From NCBI GenBank assembly GCA_028279745.1, contig JANQNC010000001.1, forward strand, positions 990,001 through 1,022,000: 32,000 nt of DNA. Reading direction: 5' to 3'. Of this stretch, positions 2,879-31,089 are shown one piece after another. The translations under genes were made by a program, and so were the position numbers. This stretch comes from Candidatus Nanoarchaeia archaeon. GTDB lineage: Archaea > Nanobdellota > Nanobdellia > Woesearchaeales > JANQNC01. The stretch's first letter is position 1. Every line of letters begins with the position of its first letter. The notes under the pieces were generated by a model. The model ran no database searches and was not told the DNA's origin. It saw nothing but the letters and a program-made list of their open reading frames with translations.

Positions 2879-3949
2879 ATGTCATTATTCAAAAACATGT
2901 TAGGGTCTGAGGAATCGTTGTTCATGAATGCGATCGCATTAGATTATGATTTCATGCCAAAGCTGATCCCTTATAGGGAAACAGAACAAAAACACATTGC
3001 AACTTGTGTAAGACCCTTATTCCAACAAAGAAATGGTCGTAATCTGATAATAACTGGAACGCCGGGAGTCGGGAAGACAGTCGCAACAAGAAATGTTCTA
3101 CAAGAACTTGAAGAGGAGACAGACGAAGTAACTCCAATCTACATCAATTGTTGGCAGAAAAATACTTCTTACAAAATTGTATTGCACTTATGTGAAGAAT
3201 TAGGGTATAAGTTTACTCAGAATAAAAAAACAACAGAGCTATTTGATGAAATCAAAAGAATGCTGAACAAAACATCTGCAGTGATCGTATTTGATGAGAT
3301 AGACAAAGCAGAAGAGTATGATTTCTTGTATATGCTTTTAGAGGAGATATATCGGAAAACGATAGTTCTGATCACCAATTACAAAGATTGGATAAACGGA
3401 TTAGATGAAAGGATCAAATCAAGATTAATGGCAGAGATGATGGAATTCAGATCTTACAACAAACAAGAGACTGAAGGGATTTTACGTGAGAGGATGGAGT
3501 ATGCATTCGTAAAAGGAGTGATGAAAGACGATGCATTCAACCAGATAGTCGATAAAACTTATGAGTTAAAAGATATCCGAACGGGATTATACTTGATGAG
3601 AGAATCAGGCAATAGTGCTGAAGATAGATCATCAAAAGAAATTACGCTGGAAGATGCTCAAACTGCTCTTGAAAAGTTAAAAGAATTTTCAGAAAAAGAT
3701 AAAAGCACACTTGAAGAGGATGAGAAGTTGATTCTTGACATTATTAAAGAAACCCCTGGGATTAAGATTGGTGATTTGTATAAGAAATATGAGTCATTAG
3801 GGGGCAAAGGAGTCTATAAAACATTACAGAGAAGGATTGCTAAATTAGACAAAGACAGATTCATTAAAACAAAACAAGTTCAAAGTAAAGATGGAAATAC
3901 AACACTTATCTCTATGAATGAAGTAGAGAAGAAATTGGATGAGTTCTAA
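2879..3949 (+). CDS. cdc6: Orc1/Cdc6 replication initiator
   Basis: 356-aa ORF with AAA+ Walker A GTPGVGKT, Walker B VIVFDEID and a C-terminal winged-helix-like region. Confidence 0.9.
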   Translation: MSLFKNMLGSEESLFMNAIALDYDFMPKLIPYRETEQKHIATCVRPLFQQRNGRNLIITGTPGVGKTVATRNVLQELEEETDEVTPIYINCWQKNTSYKIVLHLCEELGYKFTQNKKTTELFDEIKRMLNKTSAVIVFDEIDKAEEYDFLYMLLEEIYRKTIVLITNYKDWINGLDERIKSRLMAEMMEFRSYNKQETEGILRERMEYAFVKGVMKDDAFNQIVDKTYELKDIRTGLYLMRESGNSAEDRSSKEITLEDAQTALEKLKEFSEKDKSTLEEDEKLILDIIKETPGIKIGDLYKKYESLGGKGVYKTLQRRIAKLDKDRFIKTKQVQSKDGNTTLISMNEVEKKLDEF

Positions 3950-3951
3950 AA

Positions 3952-4404
3952 ATGAAAATAGTGAGTGCATGCTTATGCGGGGTTAAATGCAGATATGATG
4001 GGAAAGGTAAAGCGAATGATAAAATTATTGAAATGGTTAAAAAAGGAGAAGCAATACCTGTCTGCCCAGAACAAATAGGAGGGTTAACAACACCAAGAGT
4101 TCCCGCAGAAGAAAAAGACACTCAGAAATCAGAGATTTCTGGTGCTACTGGAAGTGGTGGAAAAATAATTACAACTGAAGGAAAAGACGTAACTGAAAAC
4201 TTTGAAAGAGGTGCAGAAGAAGCACTAAAGATAGCTTTACTTTCTGGGTGCGATGAAGCAATCCTAAAAGAAAAATCACCTTCATGCGGAGTTAAGCAAG
4301 TTTATGATGGGTCATTTACTGGCACACTCAAGGCGGGAGACGGCATATTCACAAGACTTCTAAAAAAGAATGGAATTAAAGTAAAAAGTGAAGAAGATAT
4401 TTAG
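3952..4404 (+). CDS. DUF523 / TudS-like Fe-S protein
   Basis: 150-aa ORF with SACLCGVKCRYDG and PVCPEQIGGLTTPR motifs typical of DUF523. The start is 3 nt after the cdc6 stop. Confidence 0.75.
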   Translation: MKIVSACLCGVKCRYDGKGKANDKIIEMVKKGEAIPVCPEQIGGLTTPRVPAEEKDTQKSEISGATGSGGKIITTEGKDVTENFERGAEEALKIALLSGCDEAILKEKSPSCGVKQVYDGSFTGTLKAGDGIFTRLLKKNGIKVKSEEDI

Positions 4405-4757
4405 AAACCAGGCCCTTCACCTGATAAAACAGGGGTTTCTTTACCTGTGCCTTTGGAGTTCTCAGTGATAGAAAACTGTTTCACTATGTTTTCAATCTTT
4501 TTTGGATCTATATCTGACCCTTCCTTAACAATAACTTTACCTTTAACTGAGTTTGGCCCTTCAGGATTGATTACGGGAGATACATATACCTCAACCTCTT
4601 TACCATAAATGATAAATTCAGAGTCTTCGTTTTTGGAAGTGTACTGTTCAGCAGGGATCCCCTCTTGTCTAAGTTTTGATACCAAGCCAGGCAAGTTACT
4701 TCTTGACAGACTTAGACTGTATCCTTTAGACACATCAAAATTGTAATTTGTTTCCAT
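4401..4757 (-). CDS. hypothetical protein (118 aa)
   Basis: Long ORF with a TATA-like element about 30 nt upstream. No recognisable motifs. Confidence 0.55.
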   Translation of the reverse strand: METNYNFDVSKGYSLSLSRSNLPGLVSKLRQEGIPAEQYTSKNEDSEFIIYGKEVEVYVSPVINPEGPNSVKGKVIVKEGSDIDPKKIENIVKQFSITENSKGTGKETPVLSGEGPGF

Positions 4758-4783
4758 TTTAGCGTAGGGGTTGTGCAGGTTTC

Positions 4784-4794
4784 TTTTAAACTTT
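4784..4794 (-). promoter_or_regulatory. TATA-box-like element for the 118-aa gene
   Basis: The minus strand reads aaaagtttaaaag about 30 nt before the ATG at 4757. Confidence 0.4.
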
Positions 4795-4833
4795 TGCTTT
4801 AGCCACTAGACAAGCAAAAATCATAGATTTTTG
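4792..4833. other. two overlapping, mutually exclusive hairpins between divergent promoters
   Basis: Hairpin X pairs 4792-4799 (ttttgctt) with 4812-4819 (aagcaaaa) around a 12-nt loop. The second hairpin pairs 4815-4822 (caaaaatc) with 4826-4833 (gatttttg) around loop ata. Both need 4815-4819. Confidence 0.4.
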
Positions 4834-4840
4834 GGTCCAT

Positions 4841-4857
4841 TGCTCACTGTGTTCGCA
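4841..4857 (+). repeat. 17-mer matching intron 2 of tRNA-Ile
   Basis: tgctcactgtgttcgca here versus tgctcaccgtgttcgca on the minus strand at 30980-30996 (16/17 identical). Confidence 0.7.
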
Positions 4858-4884
4858 CTGGACACTGGACATTCTACGAAACGG

Positions 4885-4895
4885 CCTATATAAAC
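4885..4895 (+). promoter_or_regulatory. TATA-box-like element for the micro-ORF operon
   Basis: cctatataaac lies upstream of the plus-strand small ORFs that begin at 4936/5025. Confidence 0.4.
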
Positions 4896-4973
4896 TAGTT
4901 CTGACATAATAGCTATAGAAGCAGGGAAATATAATATGCTTCTAAAAGAGGCAGGTAGCCTCAAAAGAGGCAA

Positions 4974-5015
4974 CAGAAATCAAAGATTTCTGGGCCTCCA
5001 AGCAAAGCTTAGAGG
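4974..5015 (+). promoter_or_regulatory. twin AAA-triloop hairpins; the second occludes the SD of the 5025 ORF
   Basis: First hairpin: cagaaatc-aaa-gatttctg (4974-4992). Second hairpin: cctccaagc-aaa-gcttagagg (4995-5015, one mismatch). The 3' arm agagg is part of the SD gaggtga, 6 nt before the ATG at 5025. Confidence 0.35.
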
Positions 5016-5024
5016 TGAGAAAAA

Positions 5025-5141
5025 ATGGATTGGGACACAATGAACACAAGAAAACAGATCTTTGGAGTGGAAGAATTCTCAGAGGAGTACATGAAAGATG
5101 TGAGCAACACTTTCTTTAACTTAACAAAACAAGAGAGGTAG
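5025..5141 (+). CDS. micro-ORF, 38 aa
   Basis: MDWDTMNTRKQIFGVEEFSEEYMKDVSNTFFNLTKQER. SD gaggtga lies 6 nt upstream, and the stop TAG sits inside the SD-like gagaggtag of the next ORF. Confidence 0.45.
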   Translation: MDWDTMNTRKQIFGVEEFSEEYMKDVSNTFFNLTKQER

Positions 5142-5146
5142 ATAAT

Positions 5147-5275
5147 ATGGAGCTAAATTGGGAGGAATATGAAGAAGACATATACACAAAAGAAGGAATG
5201 GAAGAACTAGTAGAAGATGACGAGATGACATCAGCAGAAGAAGGATTTATGAGAGGCTATAGGAGTGCGATGTAG
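5147..5275 (+). CDS. micro-ORF, 42 aa; paralogue of the N-terminal acidic module of the TRASH protein
   Basis: MELNWEEYEEDIYTKEGMEELVEDDEMTSAEEGFMRGYRSAM. It aligns without gaps to residues 11-37 of the 2544-2804 product (17 of 27 identical, including LVEDDEM and EEGF). Confidence 0.6.
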   Translation: MELNWEEYEEDIYTKEGMEELVEDDEMTSAEEGFMRGYRSAM

Positions 5276-5284
5276 GTGAAGATT

Positions 5285-5395
5285 ATGAATTTGAACAGAT
5301 TCATTGAAAAAAAGTTCCTGGAATGGAAGTTTGAAGATGAAAACTGGAAGAAGTCTGTGCAAGAAGAAGCAGAACTCAATCTTGAGACCTTATAG
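5285..5395 (+). CDS. micro-ORF, 36 aa
   Basis: MNLNRFIEKKFLEWKFEDENWKKSVQEEAELNLETL. SD taggtga is upstream, and the stop TAG (5393-5395) is fused to the GGAGGT that follows. Confidence 0.45.
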   Translation: MNLNRFIEKKFLEWKFEDENWKKSVQEEAELNLETL

Positions 5396-5414
5396 GAGGT
5401 AAAAAAATGGCACC
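5395..5414 (+). repeat. direct repeat, left copy (SD + ATG + GCACC)
   Basis: GGAGGTAAAAAAATGGCACC. The right copy GGAGGTAAAAATGGCACC is at 5545-5562 and differs only by two A. Confidence 0.85.
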
Positions 5415-5544
5415 AGTGCAGCTGGTTACGCTCAGCTGGCACGCAAAAGGAGGCACGCGCAAAAAAACCAAAGGTTTTTTGGCGCACACAAAAACTTCGT
5501 TTTTGTCGTGTGCGCTCACTAACGTTCGCTTAGCCACCTGGCCT
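5415..5544 (+). other. GC-rich, hairpin-dense insert (candidate miniature mobile element or structured RNA)
   Basis: Clearly more GC-rich than its flanks. It contains a CAGCTG-N8-CAGCTGGCAC hairpin (5419-5442) and a direct GGCACGC repeat. It also has twin hairpins gcgcaaaaaaacc-aaa-ggttttttggcgc (5457-5485) and a stem of about 12 pairs around the cttcg turn (about 5483-5513), then GCTCACTAACGTTCGCTTAGCCAC. Confidence 0.4.
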
Positions 5545-5562
5545 GGAGGTAAAAATGGCACC
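5545..5562 (+). repeat. direct repeat, right copy (functional SD + start of the 73-aa gene)
   Basis: GGAGGTAAAAATGGCACC, with the ATG at 5555. Confidence 0.85.
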
Positions 5563-5776
5563 GGAAAAAACATTCAAAGCAGGACAGTTATCTGCAACAA
5601 TCTGGAAAAACCAACAAGACAAATTTGAAACATTCAACGTACAATTACAGAAAAACTACAAAGACAAGATGGGAAACTGGAAAACAACAAATAACCTAAG
5701 CTTAAATGATATTCCTAAAGCAGAGATCATACTAAAGAAAGCATACGAGTTTTTAGTACTGAAAGACAACGCATGA
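5555..5776 (+). CDS. small protein, 73 aa; possibly PC4/YdbC-like nucleic-acid-binding fold
   Basis: It has a strong SD GGAGGT and is followed by a hairpin plus T-rich terminator. The segment GNWKTTNNLSLNDIPKAEIILKKAYEFL loosely resembles the G..ISL....-helix end of PC4-like proteins. The fold call is weak. Confidence 0.65.
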   Translation: MAPEKTFKAGQLSATIWKNQQDKFETFNVQLQKNYKDKMGNWKTTNNLSLNDIPKAEIILKKAYEFLVLKDNA

Positions 5777-13113: not shown

Positions 13114-13207
13114 CCCCTGAATTTTTAAAAAAGTAGCTCATAGGAAGTATTTAAATGTTATCAAAAACATTAGGTTTATATAGTATAAAATATCATGAAG
13201 TATAAAC

Positions 13208-13306
13208 ATATTTATGAGGTGATATTATATGAAGAAAATAGCTTTGATGACAACAGCATTAGCAACAGTTAGTATTGCATCAGCACAGTACGGCGGAATT
13301 CCTGAA
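13208..13306 (+). repeat. tandem duplication, copy 1 (99 bp; partner 13525-13623, 1 mismatch)
   Basis: The repeat runs from atatttatgaggtgatattatATG to ggaattcctgaa and covers SD, start, signal peptide, QYGG and IPE. The copies are offset by 317 bp. Confidence 0.9.
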
Positions 13307-13387
13307 ATAGGAAGTAGTGTTTTACCAGTTATAGGGTTGGTGGCAGTTGTTGCGGTGGCAGGATTTTTCTTAATGAAGAAAAAGTAA
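13229..13387 (+). CDS. mini-precursor: signal peptide + QYGG + IPE/TM/KKK tail (52 aa)
   Basis: MKKIALMTTALATVSIASA/QYGGIPEIGSSVLPVIGLVAVVAVAGFFLMKKK. SD gaggtga is upstream and an oligo-T tract follows the stop. Confidence 0.6.
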   Translation: MKKIALMTTALATVSIASAQYGGIPEIGSSVLPVIGLVAVVAVAGFFLMKKK

Positions 13388-13545
13388 TAGTATAATTTTT
13401 TTATATGCTTTTTTTTTATTTATTTTAGTATAGTTGTTACTTTGGTAATATAACTAGAAGTAACTTTCTCTAGTAACAAAAATCAAAACCTTTATATATG
13501 ATTATGCATCAAAAATGTATAATAATATTTATGAGGTGATATTAT

Positions 13546-13704
13546 ATGAAGAAAATAGCTTTGATGACAACAGCATTGGCAACAGTTAGTATTGCATCAG
13601 CACAGTACGGCGGAATTCCTGAAGTTGGCGGTAAAGTACTTCCAATCGTAGGTCTTGTAGCAGTTGTTGCTGTGGCAGGATTTTTCTTAATGAAAAAGAA
13701 CTAA
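13546..13704 (+). CDS. mini-precursor, second copy (52 aa)
   Basis: MKKIALMTTALATVSIASA/QYGGIPEVGGKVLPIVGLVAVVAVAGFFLMKKN has the same SD and an oligo-T tract after the stop. Confidence 0.6.
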   Translation: MKKIALMTTALATVSIASAQYGGIPEVGGKVLPIVGLVAVVAVAGFFLMKKN

Positions 13705-13758
13705 GGGTTTAATTTTTTTATTTCCCAACTTTTTTTATTCTCTAATCTTTTTTTTAGT

Positions 13759-14331
13759 TTATCTGCTTTTTAGCTTCAGGAACAGCCCTTTGAACACATT
13801 AAATCTAGAAGTCTTTTTCTTGTAATCTGAATATTTTTTACCGAAACGTATAGTAAGCTCTTTCTCTTCAGAGAAGGTTAAGATTATGAATAGTATAGAG
13901 ATAATTCCCGCTTCAACTATTGCAAAAAAAGACCAGAAACATATGGCTAAACCAACAAGGATGAAAGAAGTGCCAACATATATAGGATGTCGTACGTAGC
14001 TGTATATTTTGGTGTTAACTACCTTTTCCAATGGGACTAATATGCCTGTCTTTATCACAAACAGTGCATCTAGCATAATAAATACGCCTATGAAGAAAAC
14101 AACTAAGCCCCCTGCAACTATTAAGAGATCTGTTTTAATCATATCTCTTGAAGCCAGCCATAAGAAGAAAACATAACAAGTCATAACCAATAATGTTTGG
14201 AACCAAGCTATTAGCATCTGGATAATGCTTGAAGATCTTGGTTTAAACCAGTATATTATGGGGAAAATGATTCCTAAAACTATAAGAAAGTAAATTGATA
14301 CTACAACTAGATATCCTGGGTTTGCAATCAT
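13759..14331 (-). CDS. ICMT/PEMT-family membrane methyltransferase
   Basis: 190-aa polytopic ORF. YSYVRHPIYVG...EEKELTIRFGKKYSDYKKKT matches the RHPxY..G / EE..L...FG..Y..Y signature of isoprenylcysteine carboxyl methyltransferase-like proteins. Confidence 0.75.
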   Translation of the reverse strand: MIANPGYLVVVSIYFLIVLGIIFPIIYWFKPRSSSIIQMLIAWFQTLLVMTCYVFFLWLASRDMIKTDLLIVAGGLVVFFIGVFIMLDALFVIKTGILVPLEKVVNTKIYSYVRHPIYVGTSFILVGLAICFWSFFAIVEAGIISILFIILTFSEEKELTIRFGKKYSDYKKKTSRFNVFKGLFLKLKSR

Positions 14332-25553: not shown

Positions 25554-25637
25554 CTTTCTGCACAGCTGCAATATCAGCTGGCACTATAAGCGGGCAACCT
25601 TCGGTCGCCCACTGGTTAAGGTGTTAAACGCAGAAAG
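25554..25637. ncRNA. 84-nt GC-rich multi-hairpin element (candidate structured RNA or palindromic element)
   Basis: An 8-bp closing stem CTTTCTGC/GCAGAAAG encloses two hairpins. These are CAGCTG-caatat-CAGCTG (25563-25580) and GGGCAACC-ttc-GGTCGCCC (25592-25610, one A.C mismatch). It shares the 10-mer CAGCTGGCAC with 5433-5442. Confidence 0.3.
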
Positions 25638-25684: not shown

Positions 25685-27466
25685 ATGATGAAGATATTTT
25701 TGATATTGGTTGCTTTGTTTGCTATAAGCTTTGCTTGTGCTCAAACAACTTATTATGTTGATGATGATGGAGTTTGTGGAGGAAATATTCCTTGTTCTAC
25801 AACAATAGCAGGAGGGTTGGCTTCAGCAGTATCAGGTGATACTGTTTATGTTTATGATGGCAGTTATACTGAAAATCCAACTGTAAATGCAGGAATTAAT
25901 CTGTCTGGTGAAAGTAACACTGGAACTGTTGTAAGCGGGACAATTACTATTTATGCTAATACTGTTGTAAACAATTTGAAAATTACAGGAAGTGGAAAAG
26001 GTATAAACGTTCCTGCAGGAAATTATGATAATCAAGTAATATCTAATAATCTATTAGTTCAAAACATTGGTAATGCGATAGAAACAGGCTCAGATAGTGG
26101 AACAAACATGCGTGTTTCAAATAATTTAATATCAGACAATGCGGGGTCGGGGTTTCGTGCTAGTTTTGATCCTGGAACAATTTATTTTGAACATAACACT
26201 ATTGTAAATAATAGCGATGGTGTTGTGATAGGAAGAAGGAGTAACTTTTGGCTTACTGATAACATTATAGCTTTTAATAGGAATTATGCTTTTGCTAATT
26301 CAGGGGGTCATAATCAAGTTTGTAATTTTTATAATAATCATAGTTTGATTTATGCTAACAGAGAGGGTTTGTTACGGCCAAATTCTTCTACTCGTTATTC
26401 TGTTTTTTATGATGTCGAAGGCGGTGTTTACTCCCAGCCTCGGTTTGTAGATTCTTATAATGGGGATTATAGAATAGATTGTGGAAGTCCTGCTGCAAGT
26501 GCTGCAACTGATGGCACAAATATTGGTGTTTATCAAGGATGTGTTAACACAGGAAATTATTATGGGCCTTTCTATGTTGCAAAAACGGGAGATGATTCAA
26601 CAGGGGATGGTTCACCCTCAACTCCTTACTTGACAATCCAGAGAGGTATTGACCAAGCTCTTTATTTTGATGAAGTCATTGTAAAACCAGGAACTTATAC
26701 GGAGAATCCTGTTGTTGATCAGACAGTGGCTTTGACTGGAGCAGGTAATAGTGATTCAATCGTGAGCGGAACGATCACCATGTCTCATGATACAAATCTG
26801 ACTGGTTTTAAGGTTACAGGTAATGGTCAAGGTCTTTACTTTACTGGAGATCGACAATTCGTTGAAGATTGTAGGATTGAGAGTAATACGGGTGCAGGAA
26901 TTGCAACTGCTTCTGACGCAGGAACTCATGCGGTAATCTCAAGAACGCTGATAGCAAATAATGGGGGTCATGCTGTAGATTTTAGTTTTGATGTGTCAGA
27001 TGATATCTACTTTACTCATGTAACTATTGTGGGCAACTCAGGAAATGTGTTTGACATTATACGTAGAATAAGCATAAAATTAACTGATAGCATAGTCGCA
27101 AATAATGGAGGTTATCTAATTGGCGGAAGTTTAGATTACAGGCCGCCTGGCGCGTTACCTTTTGAAATAATAGTTAACAATAGCTTGATTTATGAGGATC
27201 CTATTAAGGCGGATAGTAGAATAGAGTATATTGAAGTTGAAGGAGTCATAAATGATTCAGATCCTCTATTCTTAGTTGGTTCAGTAGATTATGAACTTCA
27301 AGCAAGTTCACCGGCACAACAAGCAGCTTCAGACGGAACAGACATGGGTTGGATAGAAAGTTTAAGTGATCAAGGTGGAGATGATATACCTGAAATGTCA
27401 CAAACTATAGTGTTAATCATTGCACTTGTTGTAATAATGTCAATGGCATTCATGAAAAAACGCTAG
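25685..27466 (+). CDS. secreted right-handed beta-helix (PbH1/NosD-like) protein with IPE-type C-terminal anchor signal
   Basis: Signal peptide MMKIFLILVALFAISFACA. Two homologous halves carry N.I..N / G..I repeats. The C-terminus is GGDDIPEMSQTIVLIIALVVIMSMAFMKKR. Confidence 0.8.
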   Translation: MMKIFLILVALFAISFACAQTTYYVDDDGVCGGNIPCSTTIAGGLASAVSGDTVYVYDGSYTENPTVNAGINLSGESNTGTVVSGTITIYANTVVNNLKITGSGKGINVPAGNYDNQVISNNLLVQNIGNAIETGSDSGTNMRVSNNLISDNAGSGFRASFDPGTIYFEHNTIVNNSDGVVIGRRSNFWLTDNIIAFNRNYAFANSGGHNQVCNFYNNHSLIYANREGLLRPNSSTRYSVFYDVEGGVYSQPRFVDSYNGDYRIDCGSPAASAATDGTNIGVYQGCVNTGNYYGPFYVAKTGDDSTGDGSPSTPYLTIQRGIDQALYFDEVIVKPGTYTENPVVDQTVALTGAGNSDSIVSGTITMSHDTNLTGFKVTGNGQGLYFTGDRQFVEDCRIESNTGAGIATASDAGTHAVISRTLIANNGGHAVDFSFDVSDDIYFTHVTIVGNSGNVFDIIRRISIKLTDSIVANNGGYLIGGSLDYRPPGALPFEIIVNNSLIYEDPIKADSRIEYIEVEGVINDSDPLFLVGSVDYELQASSPAQQAASDGTDMGWIESLSDQGGDDIPEMSQTIVLIIALVVIMSMAFMKKR

Positions 27467-27515
27467 AAAAGCAAAGCTTTTCTGCGCACAAGAAATTCAT
27501 AAGAATTTCTTTGTG
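27465..27515. terminator. twin hairpins directly after the stop codon
   Basis: First: agaaaagc-aaa-gcttttct (27465-27483). A gcgcaca linker follows. Second: cacaagaaattc-ataa-gaatttctttgtg (27487-27515). Confidence 0.45.
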
Positions 27516-27530
27516 AAATGAGGTGTTGAA

Positions 27531-28394
27531 ATGAAAAAAATAATATTTTTTTTAATGGTTTTATTTGCAGTTGGAGTAGTTAGCGCAGCAAACTATCCAG
27601 CATGTAATAATCCAATAGATAATGCGCCATGTGTTATAATGGGGGAGTCTAATGTGGTCTATACTCTTGAGGATCAGGTAGTTGTTGACGCAGGAGACTA
27701 TGATGGATCAAAACAAGATCCTGATACAGTCATATTTATTTCAGGTTCAAACAATATAGAACTAGACTGTAAAGGTTATTCCATCTCAACAACAACAGAC
27801 AGTTTTAGAATAGGGGTTCACGTTTTTGATTCACATGCGATTAACGTTACAAACTGTGAGATATACGATTTTTTATCAGCCCCCCCTTCTGCAGGGTTAG
27901 GTTTGTCTGTATTTAATAACCAAGAACATTTTATCACTGGAAACTTCATTCATGACAACAGGGTAGGTGTTGGAGGGCTTTTTAGTGCTGGGCCTTTTGC
28001 AAAGTTCGAAGAAAATATAATAGAAAATAATGAGGTTGGAATGGGGCCTGCTCATCCAGCATCTGACTTATATTTTGATGAGATGAATACACAAAACAAC
28101 TGTTTCGCAAATGAAATTAATGTAGACCCGTCTGGTTGTTATCCTCCAAGTTATCAATCAAACCCATCATGGGATGGAAACTATTGGCATGACTTATTCA
28201 GTCCAACATATCCTGTTTGTGGTGTTGATGGGTTTTCAAGAACAGATAACACACCTTCAAATTATCCCTGTCCTTTAACATTTGAAGGACCAGTTCTTCA
28301 ACCTGAAGGAGAGATTCCAGAGATAAACACATCAGCAGTGATTTTAATTATCGCTGTAGTTGCAATCGGTGCTGTGTTTGTTAAAAGGAAATAA
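27531..28394 (+). CDS. secreted beta-helix (NosD-like) protein with IPE-type C-terminal anchor signal
   Basis: Signal peptide MKKIIFFLMVLFAVGVVSA and SD gaggtg. Repeats such as NVTNCEIYD and GNFIHDNRVGVG are present. The C-terminus is PEGEIPEINTSAVILIIAVVAIGAVFVKRK. Confidence 0.8.
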   Translation: MKKIIFFLMVLFAVGVVSAANYPACNNPIDNAPCVIMGESNVVYTLEDQVVVDAGDYDGSKQDPDTVIFISGSNNIELDCKGYSISTTTDSFRIGVHVFDSHAINVTNCEIYDFLSAPPSAGLGLSVFNNQEHFITGNFIHDNRVGVGGLFSAGPFAKFEENIIENNEVGMGPAHPASDLYFDEMNTQNNCFANEINVDPSGCYPPSYQSNPSWDGNYWHDLFSPTYPVCGVDGFSRTDNTPSNYPCPLTFEGPVLQPEGEIPEINTSAVILIIAVVAIGAVFVKRK

Positions 28395-28467
28395 TTTTTT
28401 TTATTTTCTTTTTCCCACAGAAAACTTTCAGTTTTCTGGGGCCCAGAAAATCAAAGATTTTCTTGGG
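28395..28467. terminator. oligo-T tract plus twin hairpins between convergent genes
   Basis: aattttttttattttctttttc is followed by cagaaaac-tttca-gttttctg (28418-28438) and cccagaaaatc-aaa-gattttct(t)ggg (28442-28467). Confidence 0.5.
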
Positions 28468-28472
28468 TTTTC

Positions 28473-30925: not shown

Positions 30926-30941
30926 TTGTGTAGGAGTAGAA

Positions 30942-31089
30942 TGAGCTGGAGGGGACTTTCAACGCACCGCGTTGCAAGCTGCGAACACGGTGAGCATGTT
31001 TGAACCCCCGACCACTGGCTCACTTAGGAGCCGTTGTTTGAAACGGGGCCATATAAGACCAGCGCTCCACCAGACTAAGCTACCAGCTC
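30942..31089 (-). tRNA. tRNA-Ile (UAU) with two introns (37/38 and 59/60)
   Basis: The exons give a 74-nt cloverleaf: GAGCTGG/CCAGCTC acceptor, GCTT/GAGC D-stem, CTGGT-CTTATAA-GCCAG anticodon arm, GGGGG-TTCAAAT-CCCCT T-arm, discriminator A. Intron 1 is 31021-31051 (31 nt); intron 2 is 30956-30998 (43 nt). Both junctions fold as 3-nt bulge / 4-bp helix / 3-nt bulge (CTTA/TAAG and TTCA/TGAA). Confidence 0.85.

Follow-up and report, generated by a model that had tools for sequence, protein, structure and literature searches.

In the genome of Candidatus Nanoarchaeia archaeon (GTDB: Woesearchaeales), a GC-rich, non-coding cassette separates a row of three small open reading frames (ORFs) from the gene for a 73-aa protein. 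The cassette was analyzed within contig JANQNC010000001.1, positions 990,001 to 1,022,000. This stretch of 32,000 nt, about 2.5% of the 1.3-Mb source genome, is called the window, and all coordinates refer to it. The cassette consists of a 130-nt core and two flanking direct repeats. We read it, with about even confidence, as a recent mosaic hairpin insertion similar to a repetitive extragenic palindrome (REP) or bacterial interspersed mosaic element (BIME) or to a miniature inverted-repeat transposable element (MITE), or as a templated patch, which duplicated its target of 18-20 bp. This reading starts from what is directly observed, namely the anatomy of the cassette, the duplication, the membership of its hairpins in a repeat family and its absence from relatives. 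The genomes of DPANN archaea are tiny and streamlined, and their small repeats, terminators and regulatory DNA are little known. The locus reveals a hairpin family that is common to different DPANN orders.

The features are listed in Table 1. The left direct repeat (DR-L) overlaps the stop codon of ORF3 (TAG, 5393-5395). It holds GGAGG (5395-5399), a decoy Shine-Dalgarno (SD) sequence, and a decoy ATG (5407-5409). The right direct repeat (DR-R) holds the working SD sequence (GGAGG, 5545-5549) and the real start codon of the 73-aa gene (ATG, 5555-5557). The length of an A run is the sole difference between the two, and the repeat finder reports two exact blocks, GGAGGTAAAAA (spacing 150) and AAAAATGGCACC (spacing 148). 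Identity apart from the A run suggests that the event is recent. When scored without gaps, the flanking repeats reach a value of 12, which is attained by only 2% of random sites of the same geometry; the gapped match of DR-L and DR-R (18/20) is far rarer in this control. An empty allele would read CCTTATAGGAGGTAAAAA(AA)TGGCACCGGAAAA, directly joined.

Much of this anatomy had been described in an earlier note, which was made from the sequence alone. The flanking repeats with their SD sequences and start codons were confirmed by reading the sequence and by the repeat finder. The sharp shift in composition is real: a GC content of 55% or more over 60 nt is reached at no more than about six places in the window (35.3% GC overall), of which the cassette is one and tRNA genes are two. 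The sub-features that had been named in the core (the CAGCTG hairpin, the GGCACGC repeat, the hairpins that share GCGC, GCTCACT..GTTCGC and TTAGCCAC) are all present, and the stops of the three upstream ORFs do lie inside or next to the following SD sequence. The decoy SD sequence and ATG had been said to open a 73-codon frame that is non-coding-like. This frame differs from that of the real 73-aa gene, with which it overlaps by 74 nt. It has no Pfam match and no homologs; a full HMMER scan returned one marginal low-complexity match only. For the cassette as a whole, no protein homologs were found in six frames among 5.8 billion proteins.

Table 1. Features of the cassette, of the operon and of the related hairpins in the window.
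Feature	Position	Strand	Details
Left direct repeat (DR-L)	5395-5414	+	GGAGGTAAAAAAATGGCACC; read from the sequence and by the repeat finder
Core, 130 nt, non-coding, GC-rich	5415-5544	+	from the sequence and a GC scan
Left hairpin (hp0)	5416-5442	+	GTGCAGCTG / GTTACGCT (N8) / CAGCTGGCAC
First hairpin of the twin (hp1)	5457-5485	+	GCGC-A-AAAAAACC / AAA / GGTTTTTT-G-GCGC; covariance-model match 45.4 bits
Second hairpin of the twin (hp2)	5482-5515	+	outer stem GCGCAC/GTGCGC, inner stem ACAAAAAC / TTC / GTTTTTGT
Segment collinear with 4815-4856	5489-5529	+	hairpin, 8-nt spacer, GCTCAC-N-GTTCGC
3' end of the core	5530-5547	+	TTAGCCAC CTGG CCTGGA; 8-mer TTAGCCAC exact at 4799 and 5530
Right direct repeat (DR-R)	5545-5562	+	GGAGGTAAAAATGGCACC; read from the sequence and by the repeat finder
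Decoy ORF, 73 codons	5407-5628	+	opened by the ATG of DR-L
73-aa gene	5555-5776	+	homologs; predicted structure
Three small ORFs (38, 42 and 39 aa)	5025-5395	+	each stops in or next to the following SD sequence
Leader hairpin	4967-4998	+	GAGGC-AA-CAGAAATC / AAA / GATTTCTG-G-GCCTC; R2 21.2 bits
Promoter region	4799-4894	+	distal CCACTAGACA 4802-4811, hairpin 4815-4833, GCTCACTGTGTTCGC 4842-4856
Promoter, proximal part	4856-4894	+	tandem CACTGGA-CACTGGA-CA 4856-4871, TATA box 4887-4894
Second twin hairpin	27458-27514	+	overlaps the 593-aa beta-helix gene at its stop codon; fold z -5.5
Third twin hairpin	28411-28470		between two convergent genes
Hairpin copies found by model R2	4116, 4815, 4967, 5455, 5479 (-), 27458, 27465 (-), 28411, 28436 (-)		

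The core can be divided into three parts: a CAGCTG hairpin on the left, a twin hairpin that belongs to a repeat family, and an apparent diverged copy of a segment that lies upstream of the operon promoter. The direct repeat GGCACGC occurs at 5438 and 5452. The members of the twin hairpin have GCGC (5482-5485) in common, and each carries an oligo-T run in its 3' arm (T6 at 5475-5480 in hp1, T5 at 5500-5504 in hp2). Further downstream are GCTCACTAACGTTCGC (5514-5529) and TTAGCCAC (5530-5537). Four words of at least 6 nt that are shared by 5489-5529 and the promoter-upstream segment 4815-4856 lie on one diagonal, with a chain score of 25, which is reached by 1% of shuffles in a search of the whole window. 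The core region 5443-5485 resembles the leader hairpin region of the operon (4961-4998), with three compensated stem positions. The 3' end of the core may be a decayed copy of the promoter-proximal repeats CCACTAGACA and CACTGGACACTGGA (4799-4811 and 4856-4871). In its make-up, the core does not look foreign: it combines, as a mosaic, the genome's own hairpin repeats with a diverged copy of the promoter-upstream segment of the operon. No match was found in viral contigs (three patterns), plasmids or phages (blastn). With this three-part mosaic, the core would behave like a REP/BIME doublet or a MITE, as a hairpin repeat that is non-autonomous and reaches intergenic junctions by spreading or by being copied.

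Within the window but outside the cassette, the core is matched best by the twin hairpin behind the gene for a 593-aa beta-helix protein (27461-27495). Both have the linker GCGCACA, and 28 of 36 positions are identical, a score that is equalled by 3% of dinucleotide shuffles. This link had been noticed before (27465-27515); it holds and extends to a repeat family in other DPANN genomes. A pattern restricted to the positions that these two copies share was searched for in 596 Gb of species-representative genomes (a set that does not include the source genome). Among the 21 matches, 18 are bacterial, mostly in seemingly coding contexts. The other three are from DPANN archaea, one each from Nanoarchaeia (L088), Pacearchaeota (L094) and Woesearchaeota (L101); contigs and loci used for comparison carry numbers with the prefix L. 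In all three, GCGCACA is followed by a second A/T-stem hairpin. The copy in L094 (3500-3553) is 89% identical to 27453-27508 of the window over 56 nt, and the flanking genes are unrelated. Additional copies are found in L029 and at the third twin hairpin of the window.

An alignment of seven copies shows that hp1 keeps 11 base pairs and a bulged base at one fixed place, with compensatory changes at 4 of the 11 pairs. The second hairpins match the covariance model of hp1 (model R2) on the opposite strand (window 5479-5513 with 29.4 bits, L094 3528-3562, L029 569-606), which makes the unit an inverted doublet. With model R2, nine hairpin copies are detected in the 32-kb window, at four loci, compared with only a handful in 313 kb of related metagenome loci. 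Every twin hairpin seen sits just past a gene end, in either orientation relative to the flanking genes, and hairpins with T runs are wanting at most gene ends in the window. Such a position suits a terminator-like role that works in both directions, at the level of DNA or RNA.

Two side observations concern other members of this family. One hairpin (4116-4150, CAGAAATC AGA GATTTCTG, R2 22.7 bits) is located inside the coding sequence of a 2-thiouracil desulfurase homolog, where it may have been inserted in frame (residues ..TQKSEISG..). Behind the 593-aa gene, the twin hairpin has the 9-nt sequence ATGAAAAAA on both sides (27452-27460 and 27531-27539). On the right, this sequence forms the start of the next gene; on the left, it codes for the final residues (MKK) of the gene before. 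This repeat is at chance level in the control, yet it echoes the start-codon duplication of the cassette.

A search of 83 loci that encode proteins related to the 73-aa product found no cassette-like sequence. The contig with the closest relative (JGI contig 3300075153, 1,511 nt) has three small ORFs, for which no homology to those of the window could be shown, and then the gene after a gap of 13 nt. If one repeat and the core were removed from the window, the gap would be 11 nt. The proposal that the segment is insertion-like is borne out by both results. The empty site was encountered only in part: the closest relative has a compact junction according to its gene coordinates, whereas the exact empty-site junction pattern had no match in 185,579 species genomes.

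The interval between promoter and start codon is a recurrent place of insertion in other loci of this gene family. A LAGLIDADG gene is inserted in L001-L003 and L028 (3101-3942 in L001, 1997-2927 in L028). An upstream small ORF is inserted in L106. L033 has a 52-nt hairpin-rich insert (~1960-2012) when compared with L071, and this splits the leader block just before the SD sequence. The insert in L033 contains CAAGC-AAA-GCTTG, GGAAACGTTCC and CCAAGG-TTA-CCTTGG and is flanked by GCGAA and GCGTA. The LAGLIDADG homing-endonuclease gene is free-standing. It sits between the CACTGGA/TATA promoter and the end of the leader and apparently borrows the promoter.

According to the reading as an insertion, 130 nt of non-coding DNA would have been added between the last small upstream ORF and the PC4-like gene, with duplication of 18-20 bp that bear the ribosome-binding site and the start codon with five further bases behind it. 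We infer that this may have occurred by either of two routes. One is a transposition-like insertion at cuts that are staggered by 18-20 bp. The other is a template switch during replication, which would have copied the hairpin module and returned 18-20 nt upstream of the point of departure. The mosaic composition and the odd length of the duplication suit the template switch, while insertion is suited by the twin hairpin, which is closer to distant copies than to local sequence.

Several results weigh against a recent insertion of a REP-like or MITE-like element. With 18-20 bp, the duplication exceeds the target-site duplications of 2-10 bp that are reported for MITEs (PMC11602168); a remark in the earlier note that it is too long for a typical MITE agrees with this range. 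The terminal inverted repeats, which in MITEs have at least 10-15 bp, are weak (AGTGCAGCTGGTTACGC and the reverse complement of the 3' end, AGGCCAGGTGGCTAAGC, agree at 12/17 positions by eye). They are neither among the inverted repeats listed by the repeat finder nor in the minimum-energy fold. When the whole cassette (5395-5562) is folded as RNA, its plus strand is no better than shuffles (z -0.65). A second copy of the whole 130-nt core is found neither in the window nor in the 83 related loci, and no transposase or other mobilizing enzyme was identified by Pfam scans, which took in only part of the window ORFs. That each further copy might have its own duplication, as considered in the earlier note, holds only in part. 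Twin-hairpin copies do exist in the window, and at two of six other twin hairpins the flanking duplications are above the 5% level of the random-site control. These two cases (L094, 11/11, p ~0.04; L101, 14/17) are suggestive, and the other four are at chance level. Compared with 4815-4856 and 4961-4998, the core shows a similarity of only about 60-65%. The 13-nt gap of the closest relative is known from gene coordinates, not from DNA, and this compact junction would fit an insertion here as well as a precise deletion between the repeats there. Finally, the regulatory effect described below (attenuation) is wholly predicted.

The missing second copy would be expected if the cassette were a templated patch that involves no mobile element. 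In this scenario, a replication fork or repair synthesis stalled in the A run between SD sequence and ATG, and one or more template switches to nearby hairpins followed, of the type known as fork stalling and template switching (FoSTeS) or microhomology-mediated break-induced replication (MMBIR). The return 18-20 nt upstream would leave a mosaic and a duplication, so that neither a dedicated enzyme nor mobility of the family is needed. Pieces of the core resemble sequences 450-700 bp upstream in permuted order, the neighboring ORF2 is likewise a copy of part of a gene that lies 2.6 kb upstream, and the length of the duplication is unlike that of known transposases. We nevertheless consider this scenario unlikely. 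The putative templates are just 60-65% identical, while the flanking repeats are perfect, so that a recent local copy fits badly; the donor, if there is one, was not seen. In addition, the twin hairpin is nearer to other loci and genomes (78-89%) than to local sequence.

In another alternative, the relative's compact junction arose by such a deletion, and the segment is an old intergenic spacer. It would be left over from what was once the border of two transcription units and be composed of a terminator twin hairpin and a decayed promoter-upstream region. Its order, with terminator-like hairpins first and the copy of the promoter-upstream segment thereafter, is as expected for such a spacer. 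A precise deletion could be promoted by the direct repeats, and the comparison is with one close relative only, by gene coordinates only. However, the core has neither a TATA box nor the conserved leader block, and in 60 of 71 loci the gene is directly preceded by a single promoter. The left repeat must also have stayed identical. It has no evident constraint beyond TAG/GGAGG, and this perfect repeat favors a recent gain. An old spacer is thus distinctly unlikely.

Oligo-T tracts are the signal for intrinsic transcription termination in archaea. Two sense-strand T runs of at least five residues, T6 and T5, are found 80-110 nt after the ORF3 stop. Transcripts from the promoter would meet T6 and then T5, each as the 3' arm of a hairpin. 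Ribosomes could start at the decoy ATG and would then translate out of frame over the true SD sequence and ATG, up to 5628. From the hairpins with T runs and the decoy SD/ATG, we predict that expression of the 73-aa gene is lowered and uncoupled. The gene would retain an intact SD sequence and start codon in the right repeat. If correct, an apparently fresh insertion has rewired a conserved operon by placing a terminator-like module and a decoy start before a PC4-like gene.

The same features could mean that the cassette is a selected attenuator or mRNA-stability element, which, however it arose, balances the small ORFs against the PC4-like gene in the manner of intercistronic REPs in bacterial operons. 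Apart from the T runs and the decoy, the compensatory changes in hp1 across the family point in this direction, and so does the folding of the core alone, which is better than that of shuffles (z -2.2 for the plus strand, -2.7 for the minus strand). A selected element is nevertheless improbable, because it is absent in all relatives examined. Moreover, the family members occur in both orientations with respect to the flanking genes, which argues for a role that is at the DNA level or independent of orientation.

A gene for a small RNA or antisense RNA would most likely be located on the minus strand. There, the whole cassette folds with a z of -3.2, and a hairpin with T7 forms a terminator-like site (5426-5400). 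GC-rich islands in AT-rich genomes are often RNA genes. However, the difference in folding between the strands is largely due to G-U pairing, a TATA-like promoter is seen on neither side, and the relatives have no conserved homolog. Rfam, at gathering and at permissive thresholds, and ARAGORN returned nothing at the cassette; the best Rfam score of 19.5 bits, compared with a threshold of 88 (Avashort thermometer, E 0.7), is at chance level. We therefore regard an RNA gene as very improbable.

Another GC-rich, structured island (25556-25634) was observed where the isoleucyl-tRNA synthetase gene and the gene for the 593-aa beta-helix protein diverge, in their promoter region (fold z -3.3 for the plus strand, -4.5 for the minus strand). 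A small RNA gene and an operator are both conceivable here. The island and the left hairpin of the cassette have CAGCTG-N-CAGCTGGCAC in common (CAGCTG..CAGCTGGCAC at 25563-25584). Kinship of the left hairpin with 25563-25584 is within noise when Smith-Waterman scores are compared with shuffles, and the same is true for kinship of GCTCAC..GTTCGC with a tRNA-Ile intron (30981-30996). Neither is relied on. Two copies of 244 nt (13200-13443 and 13517-13760), which are 82% identical and 317 nt apart, were found in an intergenic/short-ORF region.

It was also considered if the cassette is removed from the RNA as a bulge-helix-bulge (BHB) intron, or is bypassed by a ribosome that hops from GCA 5410 to GCA 5558, as in T4 gene 60 or 'byp' elements. 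The direct repeats would allow the removal of 148-150 nt at any matching offset to restore one junction, and the genome does have non-canonical BHB introns (in the T-loop of tRNA-Ile). Furthermore, a GC-rich hairpin insert in an AT-rich genome resembles byp elements. A scanner for the BHB motif (two 3-nt bulges with a 4-bp helix between them, at the excision boundaries) found no motif that excises 148-150 nt; the best candidate at the cassette removes 144 nt, and its flanking helices have only 3 and 1 bp. When calibrated, the scanner recovered all three tRNA introns of the window (tRNA-Val 20264/20222; tRNA-Ile 31053/31022 and 31000/30957). Group I or group II introns are not indicated at the cassette by Rfam. 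A bypass would be unnecessary since the real gene has its own SD sequence and ATG, and the known bypass gap is only about a third as long as 148 nt. Removal or bypass at the RNA level is thus extremely unlikely. The spliced element, which was among the options in the earlier note, is not supported. Support was obtained for the insertion (or indel) that the note proposed, for the link to the twin hairpin and for the remark on the length of MITE duplications; its cis-regulatory attenuator is plausible in view of the hairpins with T runs and the decoy start.

The gene that contains the two tRNA-Ile introns is tRNA-Ile(UAU)-like (30940-31089, minus strand). One of its BHB introns is canonical (31 nt, 31053/31022), and the other is a non-canonical intron in the T-loop (43 nt, 31000/30957). 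This gene was missed by ARAGORN with default settings and by Rfam at the gathering threshold, and the mechanical ORF list runs the ORF of polymerase B (TTG 30977) into it.

An assembly artefact or a remnant of an integron attC site is hardly credible. The unequal A runs of the repeats could stem from a homopolymer sequencing error; however, the core is unique, and 18-nt repeats are presumably below the usual assembly k-mers. The attC alternative arises because a relative of the twin hairpin lies inside an attC-like site in L094. The test for attC sites allowed gapped arms and a length of 57-141 bp, and it picked up L094 3457-3594 as a positive control. In the cassette, it found no RYYYAAC / GTTRRRY boxes with complementary R and L arms. 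In L094 itself (Pacearchaeota metagenome-assembled genome, JAWCMS010000003.1), attC-like or integron-like features are found at 2850-2975, 3457-3594, 4485-4511 and 4561-5391. The attC-like sites (GCCTAAC ... CTCTTAATCGCTGTTAGGC, 138 nt, fold z -4.4) each follow a minus-strand ORF and adjoin a divergent gene for a 276-aa tyrosine recombinase, which is an integron-like layout. One of them bears the twin hairpin at its tip.

The gene content of the window is archaeal (Cdc6/Orc1, Kae1, Sua5, family-B polymerase, intron-bearing tRNAs). An SD sequence is present at only about 7 of 33 gene starts. No homologs of the three small upstream ORFs were found by homology search and tblastn. ORF2 (42 aa, 5147-5275) corresponds, as a truncated paralog, to the N-terminal half of an 86-aa protein (2544-2804), with 62% protein identity (E 1e-8) and 74% DNA identity over 87 nt. 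The 86-aa protein is TRASH/zinc-ribbon-like and is encoded upstream of cdc6, 2.6 kb upstream of ORF2. The block of three ORFs is framed by look-alike start contexts, AGAGGTGAGAAAAAATGG (5012-5029) and GGAGGTAAAAAAATGG (5395-5410).

The product of the 73-aa gene is probably a PC4-like protein that binds single-stranded nucleic acid, an assignment of moderate confidence. Its closest homolog (P0002, 73% identity) begins at the same residue (MKPEQTFKAG), and 293 relatives exist in metagenomes. The AlphaFold model consists of four to five strands followed by a helix (predicted local distance difference test, pLDDT, 71). The best fold matches in the PDB are PC4, its bacterial and phage homologs and Pur-alpha, with an E of only about 0.1. 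In relatives, RadA and RPA adjoin the homolog of this gene.

The promoter (4856-4894) precedes the three tiny ORFs and then the 73-aa gene. Its architecture is shared by the gene family: the tandem CACTGGA-CACTGGA-CA is located a few bases before the TATA box, followed by a leader of about 100 nt and a block that ends in the SD sequence. The heptamer is present in 60 of 71 loci (DPANN metagenome contigs), with a perfect tandem in 24 and the leader block in 50. In L004-L083, the family promoter lies about 120-260 nt upstream of the gene. A distal heptamer copy is often found 55-75 nt upstream of the tandem, and the leader ends in TGAAAYAARAYSCGAAAGSAAGGAGGT. Judged by sequence conservation, this plan looks like a transcription-factor site and a leader motif with a GNRA-type mini hairpin beside the SD sequence. 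Reading CACTGGA as an origin recognition box (ORB) of a replication origin was dropped; the motif is a promoter-proximal element of the gene family. The analysis has thus brought to light a conserved promoter and leader of the PC4-like family.

A more far-reaching idea, which we consider quite unlikely, is that the cassette belongs to a new class of small mobile hairpin elements of DPANN archaea. These would insert at gene boundaries (ribosome-binding site/start codon or stop codon), within A runs or beside them, and generate duplications of about 11-20 bp, with the twin hairpin as recognition module. Such long and variable duplications would imply an integration unlike classical DDE transposition, for example by wide staggered cuts, in a Cas1-like manner or by target-primed copying. 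Should the family be mobile, REP/REPIN or MITE elements would have a counterpart in archaea, with another integration chemistry. If the family is a terminator module, it would provide a sequence handle on transcription termination in DPANN archaea.

Among known systems, those with Cas1-type integrases (casposons and CRISPR) produce long target duplications, of 14-15 bp or of a whole repeat, and reuse one target site. The window has no Cas1 or casposon genes, and the cassette is far smaller than a casposon. Integron attC sites have been reported from Archaea, Nanoarchaeota among them (PMC9668308). A close relative of the twin hairpin tips the attC-like hairpin next to the recombinase gene of L094 (GCCTAAC ... 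GTTAGGC, 138 nt); however, the cassette has no R and L boxes, and its long direct repeat is not made by attC recombination. Mitochondrial GC clusters, 'byp' elements and the gap in T4 gene 60 are also short GC-rich hairpin inserts in an AT-rich genome with matching sequence at their bounds. They are, however, located inside a coding sequence and are bypassed, whereas the cassette lies upstream of an intact start codon, where a bypass is needless. Like archaeal intrinsic terminators, the cassette has hairpins with T6 and T5 in their 3' arms (its A runs are T runs on the other strand, so that it is possibly bidirectional), and all members of the twin-hairpin family are just beyond gene ends. Ordinary terminators are, however, not 78-89% conserved across orders and lack flanking duplications.

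Woesearchaeal genomes have been reported to be MITE-dense (PMC11602168). The cassette resembles a MITE in being small (130 nt), non-coding and structured, with a flanking target duplication and absence from orthologous sites. It differs in its weak terminal inverted repeats (12/17) and in a duplication that is outside the MITE range, and neither a second full copy nor a parent transposon is known. On our analysis, REP, BIME and REPIN elements would be the closest known system, both functionally and architecturally. Differences exist here, too. The host is an archaeon (DPANN), and the stems are A/T-rich with a GC clamp, whereas REP stems are GC-rich. REPs lack target duplications of 18-20 bp and are mobilized by RAYT (IS200/IS605-like) transposases; no RAYT-like gene was seen by Pfam in the part of the window ORFs that was scanned. 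The shared features are nevertheless extensive. The cassette family, like REPs, consists of imperfect palindromes, about 20-35 nt long and scattered through intergenic DNA, and these form inverted doublets and mosaics with other short motifs. Its sites are after stop codons and between cistrons, where bacterial REPs affect termination and mRNA stability.

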